Shown here: piece by piece, positions 36,101-39,100 of the stretch | Layout of the letters: each line of letters starts with the position of its first letter | Numbering within the stretch: position 1 is the first letter of the stretch | Made by a program: the position numbers | From: Escherichia coli | GTDB lineage: Bacteria > Pseudomonadota > Gammaproteobacteria > Enterobacterales > Enterobacteriaceae | Assembly: GCF_017348835.2 (NCBI RefSeq) | Contig: NZ_CP071375.1 | DNA length: 64,000 nt | Direction: 5' to 3' (one strand)

Positions 36101-39100
36101 ATGGCCCGGTTGTGTCTGGTTGCGAAATAAGGCTGAAGCATAAAGGCGATAAACCAACTAACAACTAAATACTGAAGATTTAAATCAGAAACGATTTTTA
36201 TTAAATCCTTAACCGGAGGGATTCCTGCACCCTCAGAACATCAGGAGGCCGCCCGAAAGGGCGGTAAGAAATGAAACATTATTTAGAAAAAAATTACCCA
36301 CGAAAGAGCAGAGCAACAGAGTTTCTGTTTTTCATTCTGTTTATAGTGTTGATGATACCGATATCCCCGCTATTACTGGTCTGGATAATTGGAAGGACAT
36401 TTGAACCAGTTATTGAGCTATATACCGATGTGACATGGGAATCATTCAGCGCACTGCACAATAAAATTAATCCGTATAAGGAAAACTGATATGAGCACTA
36501 TTACCAGAGAACGCGCGGAGATTAAATCATACATCACAGGCTTCCTGAGCGACTCGGCGCACGATAACAAGTCTTCAGACAGCCTGCTGGCTAATGTGTT
36601 TCGTATCGCGCTGGCATCACTGGAAGCAGAGCCGATAGCAATGGTAGTGCCTGATGAAATGGATTTGCTTACCTGCCATCTCGACGGTGTAACTAAAACA
36701 TATGCTGATGGCTGGAACGCCTGCCGCGTCGCCATGCTTCAGGCCGGAAACTTTCGGGAAAATAAGAATTCGTCAACCAACAATTTTCGGGAAATCTCGG
36801 AAACGTCAACCAGATCTCCGATAACTCTGGATGGCTGGATAAGCTGTACTGAGCGAATGCCTGAAAAGAGCCAGAACGTGCTTATTTCGATGAATATCGA
36901 TAGCGAGGCTGGGCCATTAATATATTCCGCACGCTATCTCGGAGGCACGTTCCGGCGCGGAGGTATAGCAGTTAGTCCGGGTAATGATCTTAGGCAAGCA
37001 ACCCACTGGATGTCGCTACCAGAACCGCCGCAGGAGGTGAATCAATGACCTGGCCTGAAGCATTCACAACGGTAGGAATTGCGATGGCGGTGGCGCTGGT
37101 GGTGTATTCGATTTGCCGCTGGGGATAAAAACGGTTTGCGGGAAAAGGATAGTTAAGTAGAATTGCTGCGGGTGCTTGAGGCTATCTGCCTCGGGCATGA
37201 ACACCAACGGCAGATAGAGAAAAGCCCCAGTTAACATTACGCGTCCTGCAAGACGCTTAACATTAATCTGAGGCTCAATCCATGCTGAACACATGTAGGT
37301 TAGCCTCTTACGTGCCGAAAGGCAAGGAGAAGCAGGCTATGAAGCAGCAAAAGGCGATGTTAATCGCCCTGATCGTCATCTGTTTAACCGTCATAGTGAC
37401 GGCACTGGTAACGAGGAAAGACCTCTGCGAGGTGCGAATCCGAACCGGTCAGACGGAGGTCGCTGTCTTCGTAGACTACGAATCTGAGAAGTAAGAGACC
37501 AGGCGGGGGAGTAATCTCCCGCCACCTCTGATGTGTCAGGCATCCTCAACGCACCCGCGCTTTACCATACTGAAAATGCTGTTTGAATGTTCATCTCTGA
37601 AAGAGGACTATGAATGAAAAAGGTATTGATTGCAGCACTTATTTCCGGTGTGTCTTTTGGCGCTTTTGCACAGCAGGGTGGTTTCCAGGGGCCAGAAGCA
37701 GAGCGTTCAACAGTAGCGCAGGCAAAAGAACTGAAGGATGATGCATGGGTTATCCTTGAAGGGAGCATCGTTAAAAAAGTGGGTGATGAACGTTATGAGT
37801 TTCGTGACAATAGCGGGACAATTGTCACGGATATTGATGACAGCGTATGGGCCGGGCAGAATGTTTCTCCGAAAGACAAAGTAAGAATTGAGGGTGAAAT
37901 TGATAAAGACCTGAGCAGTGTTGAAGTTGATGTAAAGGCACTGAAATTATTAAAGTAACCGCCCCTGCTTGTTAAGCCCGTCTTACTGACGGGTTTTCTG
38001 TTTGTACATTCCGGCGTATTGCCTTACAATTCGCGCAGTCAGCCTGAACAACTGACACCTGCTGTCACCGGAGAATCCGATGACACAACACATAAAATCC
38101 CACAATTCTGAAGCCGACCCGGAAATTAAGCAGGGGAGGCGTTTTCGTGCGCCTCAGTATGGCTGGTTTCACTATCTGTTCTGTACGATCGATGAGGCAG
38201 ATATGCTTCAAGAGGCGTATCTGCGTCGCGGTGTCCGTGTGGAGCGGAGTCTGAACGCTGATCGTCTGACCTGGACCGTTTCTGTATATCTTCCTGTTCG
38301 TGCACATCTGCCACGGACACATGCCTGCTACCGTCAGCGCGTCTGGAGGTAATGTGCGGGTATTACTTCGACCTGTTCTGGTTCCGGAACTCGGGCTGGT
38401 GGTCCTTAAGCCCGGTCGTGAATCATTGCCAGTTTTTCATCGCGGCAGGGTGCTGGTGGAGCCGGAACCGAAAAACATGCGGGCGCTGCCATCTGGAGCG
38501 GTTCCTACTGTTCGCCAGCCGCTGGCGGAAGATAAATCACTGCTGCCATTTTTCAGCGATGAGCGGGTGATTCGTGCAGCTGGCGGCGCTGGTGCACTGT
38601 CTGACTGGTTATTACGTCACGTGAAATCCTGCCAGTGGCCACACGGCGATTATCATCACAGCGAAACCGTTATTCACAGTTACGGTGCTGGCGCAATGGT
38701 GTTGTGCTGGCACTGCGACAACCAGCTGCGCGACCAGACCTCCGAATCACTTGAGCAACTTACTCAACAAAATCTGACAGCCTGGATGATTGACGTCATA
38801 CGCCATGTAATGAATGGCACGCAGGAGCGGGAATTATCGCTGGCTGAATTATCCTGGTGGGCAGTCTGCAATCAGGTGGTGGACGCATTACCTGAGGCAG
38901 TATCGCGTCGCTCTCTGGGATTACCGGCGGAAAAAATCCGCTCCGTATACCGTGAAAGCGACATCATACCGGGAGAACAGACCGCCACCAGCATACTGAA
39001 GCAGCGCACAAAAAATATTGCGCTACCGCCTCACACCCACCAGCAACAGAACCCACCACAGGAAAAGACGGTGGTCAGCATTGCCGTTGATCCGGAGTCT

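Follow-up and report, generated by a model that had tools for sequence, protein, structure and literature searches.

What is a gene for a putative periplasmic stress protein doing directly behind a hok toxin gene in a prophage, from which promoter would it be read, and whom would it serve? The question is raised by a 64,000-nucleotide (nt) stretch of an Escherichia coli chromosome (contig NZ_CP071375.1 of assembly GCF_017348835.2), hereafter the window, in which an open reading frame (ORF) for a 114-amino-acid (aa) protein of the Pfam BOF family, here called the BOF gene, lies at positions 37614-37958. The reading that we favor with moderate confidence is that this gene encodes a secreted, acidic protein with an oligonucleotide/oligosaccharide-binding (OB) fold, a xenologous copy about 53% identical to the core protein YgiW, which is carried as prophage cargo, is embedded in a hok unit and read from it, and would provide stress tolerance of the kind known from its homologues. 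The gene itself is already known: its annotation in phage 933W (AF125520) dates from 1999, and RefSeq gives it a family name, calling the identical ORF WP_000756596.1 'NirD/YgiW/YdeI family stress tolerance protein'.

The earlier note on this DNA had proposed a YgiW/YdeI-family OB-fold protein, and membership in the family was confirmed with two curated libraries of hidden Markov models as well as by the fold. The 114-aa protein matched Pfam BOF (PF04076) with E=1.9e-33 and 115.1 bits (cut-off 25.8), NCBIfam NF033674 ('NirD/YgiW/YdeI stress tolerance') with 136.8 bits (cut-off 35) and NCBIfam TIGR00156 with 112.3 bits (cut-off 108.15). The YdeI equivalog model NF007471 gave 64.8 bits, below its cut-off of 179, and on these scores the protein is therefore a YgiW-like paralogue and not a YdeI ortholog; the proposed name thus stands for the superfamily and for the likeness to YgiW, but not for orthology to YdeI. 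By sequence, the sole solved relative in the PDB is E. coli YgiW (1NNX, E=3.5e-29). An AlphaFold2 model built from 33 homologues had five strands and a mean predicted local distance difference test (pLDDT) score of 84; the score was low at residues 1-21 and exceeded 90 from residue 31 onward. The model predicts a single five-stranded OB-fold barrel like that of YgiW, and its top PDB match in Foldseek was again 1NNX (E=5e-12, target template-modeling (TM) score 0.91, 53% identity), followed by other OB folds. PHROGs places the protein in family 1230, to which no function is assigned.

An alignment of 33 sequences including the phage protein contained 12 invariant and 24 nearly invariant columns. 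The phage protein keeps all family-invariant residues, the one departure at a conserved position being in the KDW motif, where Trp is replaced by Leu. The ratio of nonsynonymous to synonymous substitution rates (dN/dS) was 0.17-0.23 in comparison with three diverged alleles (81-82% amino-acid identity; dS 0.37-0.55) and 0.04 in comparison with the 933W copy. By its family matches and these dN/dS values, the ORF is a real gene under purifying selection and not a chance ORF. Its product reads MKKVLIAALISGVSFGAFA up to the predicted cleavage site and continues with QQGGFQGPEAERSTV. Residues 1-19 look like a Sec signal peptide, with an MKK n-region, a 16-residue hydrophobic core (mean Kyte-Doolittle value 2.2) and A-F-A before the predicted cleavage site, and this region aligns with the signal regions of 32 homologues. 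The predicted mature protein has 95 aa, an isoelectric point of 4.6 and a net charge of -6.

Related prophages present the slot between hok and the following 90-aa ORF/DUF968 genes, with homologous flanks, in at least three states: it is empty in strain 23AR0303, filled by rem in the Qin prophage of K-12, and filled by the BOF gene in the window (the slot spans 37495-38030 in the window, 1874-2040 in the empty allele L004 and 1671-2205 in the rem allele L005). Identity with the empty and rem alleles stops a few bases 3' of the fbi element, the 3' pairing element of the hok mRNA. What follows this element directly in the empty and rem alleles is an intrinsic terminator made up of AACCCGCTTCGGCGGGTT and a T-run; in the window and in all BOF alleles a 47-nt leader with a Shine-Dalgarno sequence stands there instead. 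When 37567-37975 was removed in silico, what remained aligned colinearly with the empty allele through the terminator (99 of 138 columns identical), and both sequences had the same terminator CCCG/CGGG stem and TTTT-TGTTT tail. It thus appears that the BOF gene is an ORF-only insertion between the hok fbi element and the hok terminator, and that the terminator at 37974-38005 is probably the original hok terminator, displaced by the insertion. The likeness of the two terminators concerns a short element; it suggests this origin but is no proof of it. A promoter-like TACAAT element at 38003-38030 of the window is kept in the rem allele, and TTACAAT is kept in all three alleles.

The terminator scan identified 37974-38005 as the sole terminator from the hok promoter to the next gene, and thus no terminator between hok and the BOF ORF. 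A strict consensus scan, whose reach does not extend to non-canonical promoters, found no sigma-70-like promoter on the + strand of the 119-nt spacer (37495-37613), and no PhoP-, PmrA- or CpxR-like direct repeat was seen in the spacer by inspection. The Shine-Dalgarno sequence AAGAGGAC is invariant in all four diverged cassettes. Pairing of this sequence over 5 bp with CCUCU (37525-37529), present in both the minimum-free-energy and the centroid fold, was considered and rejected, the spacer folding no better than shuffled sequences (z = -0.97). Since the insertion contains neither a recognizable promoter of its own nor a terminator ahead of the ORF, the sequence argues for read-through from hok, and the BOF gene is probably co-transcribed with hok, independently of the phage repressor in lysogens.

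The earlier note had also described the gene as accessory prophage cargo, and this description holds: the slot is empty or rem-filled in related prophages, the gene has another position in 933W-type phages, and the G+C content of the BOF segment (37563-38005, which contains the insertion) is 43.8%, as compared to 52.9% in the hok locus and approximately 51% in the flanks (range including hok 48.7-52.9%). Presence or absence at the same site, deviant G+C content and a downstream terminator are features that the gene shares with the lambdoid morons bor and lom and with rem of Qin. However, unlike these, it has no detected promoter of its own and appears embedded in a toxin-antitoxin transcription unit. 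Because no promoter of its own could be recognized, the gene is better described as an appendage of the hok transcript than as an independent moron.

The neighbor that the earlier note had called hok-like is a complete hok/sok type I toxin-antitoxin locus, comprising the Hok peptide, the overlapping mok frame, a sok match and mRNA end pairing. The Pfam HOK_GEF match at mok/hok has E=1.1e-22, and the Rfam sok model RF01794 matches 37170-37344 with 113.5 bits (gathering score 59). Pairing between the 5' tac and 3' fbi elements is a hallmark of hok mRNAs. In the window, the two elements share an 8-nt perfect complement (37168-37175 with 37551-37558), and in the minimum-energy fold 37170-37181 is paired with 37544-37556, whether the RNA contains hok alone (397 nt) or hok and the BOF gene (833 nt). 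The corresponding hokW-sokW copy of 933W has been shown experimentally to be a toxin-antitoxin pair, and hokW helps the release of Sp5 after induction; its mRNA was detected in uninduced lysogens by Takada et al., whose probes did not cover the downstream gene, and the BOF gene is not mentioned in that paper (PMC8621323).

The linkage of the two genes was consistent over a large number of genomes. The BOF ORF was found in 569 of 5426 complete E. coli genomes (about 10%), with up to four copies per genome; it was full-length in 549, mostly at 99% identity or more, and 510 of the 572 BOF records were at least 99% identical. The matches listed come mostly from O157:H7, O26, O103, O111, O121 and O145 strains, or from cattle and clinical isolates. 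The number of genomes with the full ORF (549) equals the number with the hok-BOF segment (549), and in the diverged alleles P0004 and P0005 the gene lies directly behind hok at the same distance as in the window; in these genomes, then, the BOF gene always travels with hok. A context as in the window, i.e., in the nin region between DUF551 and DUF968, occurs in 513 complete genomes, and prophages of this type are integrated at potC (the window), at the Qin site by rspB (PV15-279) and at ompW (strain A30). The 933W-type context, at the right prophage end beyond the tail genes, occurs in 108 genomes. In O157:H7 strain PV15-279 (L001, regions 8648-10640 and 21340-22553) an identical cassette is found in the decayed prophage at the Qin site; since this prophage has a truncated integrase and two copies of IS1203, the block persists in prophages that are no longer inducible.

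The 81% allele P0004 (loci L008-L011, from assemblies filed as 'E. coli') is flanked by ccp/cybC on one side and by apbC-metG on the other, and phage genes are absent from the 4 kb around it (the 81%-identical hok-BOF block is at 3493-4459 of L008). The view that it is a chromosomal, non-phage copy found no support, as complete E. coli genomes contain no full-length match to its flanks; for the adjacent metG, identity to the copies on E. coli plasmids of approximately 110 kb was only about 88%. When the four cassettes were aligned, the hok half (37160-37560) was near-identical, whereas the BOF half (37567-37958) had diverged to 81-82% protein identity, and the change fell exactly at the hok/BOF junction. 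Such a step suggests either that hok is strongly constrained by its RNA structure or that it has recombined repeatedly with hok loci elsewhere. Outside E. coli, a scan of one genome per species found no hok-linked copy, only chromosomal YgiW-like genes of about 50% identity in Rahnella, Ewingella and Pseudomonas. Matches below 60% identity in a tblastn search of the 'phages' collection were not counted, being mostly 2-3-kb fragments or bacterial-looking records of 230-690 kb; Pseudomonas phage Y10 (38% identity) is a possible genuine phage carrier among them.

Taken as a mechanism, the favored reading runs as follows. In the repressed prophage, the constitutive hok promoter would produce a transcript of about 835 nt (approximately 37170-38005) carrying the BOF cistron 3' of hok, and in nin-region copies antiterminated early-right transcription would add to BOF expression after induction. 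The protein would then be exported by the Sec pathway, as its N-terminus leads us to infer, and lose its 19-residue signal peptide. In the periplasm it may act like YgiW, YdeI, VisP and SipA, binding cationic ligands such as antimicrobial peptides and/or docking on outer-membrane porins, and thereby raise the tolerance of the lysogen to peptide, peroxide and metal stress, while the block would be maintained in the population through addiction to hok/sok. Both the ligand and the envelope or antimicrobial-peptide tolerance, which would amount to lysogenic conversion, are proposed here by analogy with the homologues.

Several observations weigh against this interpretation. A read-through transcript would lengthen the 3' end of the hok mRNA by about 450 nt, which would be expected to alter the 3'-processing step needed to activate hok translation; that hokW-sokW nevertheless functions as a toxin-antitoxin pair (PMC8621323) fits poorly with obligatory read-through. 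The window also has a weak extended -10-like element, TGtTTGAAT (37580-37588) with TTTACC 16 nt upstream (37561-37588 in total), although it is not conserved in the diverged alleles. Of the two GGFxGP repeats and the conserved KDW Trp present in most relatives, the phage protein is missing the first repeat and the Trp, and its ligand could therefore differ. Finally, the host already has core ygiW and ydeI, and the gain from a third copy is not obvious.

An alternative that we consider unlikely is that the BOF gene is an independent moron with a stress-regulated promoter in its 47-nt leader, either the weak extended -10 or one activated by a two-component system, with hok as a mere neighbor. 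Its homologues are indeed driven by envelope-stress two-component systems (PMC6370654), and an intrinsic terminator follows the ORF. However, the element at 37561-37588 fails the consensus scan and, unlike the Shine-Dalgarno sequence, is not kept in the 81-82% alleles, the spacer shows none of the regulator repeats looked for, the terminator resembles a displaced hok terminator, and neither the 549 genomes nor the diverged alleles contain a BOF gene without hok directly upstream.

The beneficiary may also be another than the lysogen. That the protein serves the phage, by blocking superinfecting phages that use porins or BamA or by tuning Hok envelope damage and the timing of lysis after induction, appears improbable to us. 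In its favor, OmpF, OmpD and OmpA are bound by family members from within the periplasm (PMC6370654), the gene is firmly tied to hokW, which promotes the release of Sp5 once this phage is induced (PMC8621323), copies in the nin region belong to the early-right operon and would be switched on together with the lytic genes, and other prophages, too, have BOF genes among their cargo. On the other hand, no PADLOC defence model matched, PHROG 1230 has no assigned function, and the 933W block at the prophage end points away from the late operon, as is typical of cargo expressed in lysogens. We know of no superinfection-exclusion protein in the BOF family. Equally little credence is given to a functionless passenger that owes its spread to the addictive hok/sok locus and to successful prophages of Shiga toxin-producing E. 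coli (STEC). The 510 of 572 records with at least 99% identity do suggest recent spread, the host has two core paralogues and no phenotype has been reported, but dN/dS values of 0.17-0.23 over a dS of 0.37-0.55 disfavor this view, as do the retention of all family-invariant residues and the intact ORF, putative signal peptide and Shine-Dalgarno sequence in all four diverged cassettes.

The same gene is L0136 of 933W, annotated as 'similar to hypothetical YgiW and YdeI proteins', whose protein is 99.1% identical and differs in one residue. The 933W block is annotated sokW/mokW/hokW/L0136 and has the same hokW/mokW/sokW neighbor and the same terminator as the window, but its location differs, as it lies at the right prophage end beyond a tail gene and not in the nin region. 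A blastn alignment of the two blocks covers 976 bp at 97.3% identity, and the homology ends at 38005, right after the terminator. The gene is also H0152 of VT2-Sakai (Sp5) and is present in dozens of Stx phage records. ECs1247 (PMC3342100) was considered as a further record of it and discarded, being an unrelated 25-kDa protein. No study on the function of the phage copy was found in the literature library searched.

Concerning its chromosomal relatives, the phage protein resembles E. coli YgiW (1NNX) and Salmonella VisP in Pfam and TIGR families and OB fold (TM 0.91); it also has a GGFxGP motif ahead of the barrel and, by prediction, a signal peptide and an acidic mature form, as they do. However, it is about 50-53% identical to them, 16 residues shorter, and has one GGFxGP motif instead of two and Leu for the KDW Trp. 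It also differs from YgiW in being accessory, not core. Core ygiW adjoins qseBC, which the phage gene does not. VisP is a periplasmic BOF protein with a role in virulence and is required to survive stress (bioRxiv 10.1101/318089). The superfamily also includes YdeI (OmdA) of Salmonella and E. coli, which is the source of the expected polymyxin tolerance. The best mechanistic precedent, likened here by description, is the periplasmic BOF protein SipA (VCA0732) of Vibrio cholerae, whose gene, unlike the phage gene, is chromosomal and has its own two-component system as inducer. Both antimicrobial peptides and OmpA are bound by SipA, its peroxide and cadmium phenotypes can be cross-complemented with ygiW of E. 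coli, and interactions of YgiW with OmpF and of YdeI with OmpD have been reported (PMC6370654).

The nearest relatives outside the cassette are accessory Enterobacteriaceae BOF proteins of 127-130 aa (P0008-P0010 and P0047), which at 61-68% identity are closer than core YgiW; in contrast to the phage protein, neither GGF repeat nor the KDW Trp is missing from them, and their genes have no hok linkage. The gene of P0047 (130 aa, 62% protein identity; L028 4847-5239), on the chromosome of E. coli VTB97432v, follows gpJ, lom and tail-fibre genes of a lambda-like prophage next to zinT, with no link to hok. A 117-aa BOF gene of about 70% DNA identity, likewise without a hok link, lies beside the zinc exporter gene zitB on a 141-kb plasmid (L029 2376-2726).

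The surroundings of the block in the window agree with the prophage location given in the earlier note, since an integrase, a racR-like repressor, replication genes, DUF968/RusA/Q, and lysis and terminase genes lie around it (Table 1). Positions 24000-46000 are 99.8-99.9% identical to several complete E. coli genomes, and the chromosomal flank before the prophage is cobB-ycfZ-potD-potC in the annotation of strain 88_1577. No stx gene is annotated 3' of Q and the tRNAs, where Stx phages place stx; hence this is a lambdoid prophage without stx, with the BOF gene in the nin region in early-right orientation. The two tRNA genes are followed by TerB-like and DUF3927 genes and then by a gene for a 616-aa DUF6645 protein.

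Table 1. Positions in the window of the BOF gene, the hok locus and the surrounding prophage features.
Feature	Position	Strand	Remarks
BOF / YgiW-like gene	37614..37958	+	ATG ORF, 114-aa precursor plus stop; predicted 95-aa mature periplasmic OB-fold protein
Signal peptide codons (putative)	37614..37670	+	MKKVLIAALISGVSFGAFA, then QQ; by inspection
Shine-Dalgarno GAGG of BOF gene	37603..37606	+	7 nt 5' of ATG; direct sequence reading
Apparent insertion, about 410 bp	37567..37975	+	47-nt leader, BOF ORF, 17 nt of 3' sequence; low G+C
Intrinsic terminator	37974..38005	+	Stem 37974-37996 (9-bp), loop, T-rich tail TCTGTTTGTA; terminator scan, hairpin fold
Mobile block	37030..38005	+	DUF551-like ORF end, sok/mok/hok, BOF gene, terminator; common to 933W right end
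5' tac element of hok mRNA	37168..37181	+	Pairs with 3' fbi element
sok antisense RNA	37220..37290	-	Coordinates carried over from 933W sokW misc_RNA by alignment offset
mok frame (70 aa)	37282..37494	+	Overlaps hok; Pfam HOK_GEF at residues 25-66; mokW of 933W
hok toxin gene (51 aa)	37339..37494	+	RefSeq Hok/Gef family WP_000813258.1; PHROG 251 'MokW-like host killing', E=9.8e-33
3' fbi element of hok mRNA	37544..37558	+	Last stretch common to hok loci without BOF gene
Prophage integrase	25971-27089		Followed by excisionase, exonuclease, dicB, racR-like repressor, replication genes, DUF1627, DUF551
Genes 3' of DUF551			Hok/Gef, NirD/YgiW/YdeI protein, 90-aa ORF, DUF968, RusA, Q
DUF968/RusA/Q	38354-40608		
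Genes 3' of Q			Two tRNAs, TerB-like, DUF6645, then holin, lysozyme, terminase
tRNA, CAT anticodon	40752-40827		Met by ARAGORN, Ile in RefSeq; directly downstream of Q
tRNA Arg-TCT	40928-41004		Second of two tRNA genes downstream of Q

The block also bears on the epidemiology of hemolytic uremic syndrome (HUS). In an Irish case-control genome-wide association study (GWAS), an accessory gene 'ygiW_2' and 'group_5720' (mokC-like) were jointly associated with HUS (adjusted odds ratio 5.5) and were treated as separate, possibly interacting genes (PMC11950266). In the first 152 isolates of the appendix to that study, 83 of the 85 isolates positive for group_5720 were also positive for ygiW_2; among these isolates, positives occur in O157, O26, O145, O103 and O111, and the presence/absence calls vary within serotypes, which in this part of the appendix suggests assembly or clustering noise (PMC11950266). 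Core ygiW cannot vary in presence, and of the 569 complete genomes with a DNA-detectable accessory ygiW-like sequence, 549 have the BOF gene at 95% identity or more directly behind mok/hok. For these reasons, together with the co-occurrence in the appendix, ygiW_2 and group_5720 are very probably the two halves of one 0.8-kb prophage block (37282-37958).

A bolder view would make hok/sok and the BOF gene a three-part unit. In such a unit BOF would be translated from the long-lived hok mRNA and be coupled to the toxin, either buffering or directing the envelope damage by Hok or allowing a virulence-relevant periplasmic factor to be delivered independently of the repressor; the unit would be the true source of the HUS pair signal, and hokW-sokW deletion phenotypes would be partly polar. 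We consider this view a long shot.

The annotation of the BOF gene itself adds nothing new, although about one in ten complete E. coli genomes carries the block; the new details are incremental and comprise the hok-embedded insertion, the slot polymorphism, the dual location and the probable identity of the GWAS pair. If the GWAS pair is one block, the reported association reads as linkage to particular prophages and not as epistasis. The published Sp5 hokW-sokW::kan deletion takes out the hok promoter region (PMC8621323). Should the hok promoter also serve the BOF gene, hokW-sokW deletions would change BOF expression as well, and polarity on the BOF gene could account for part of the twofold drop in phage release reported for the Sp5 deletion (PMC8621323).

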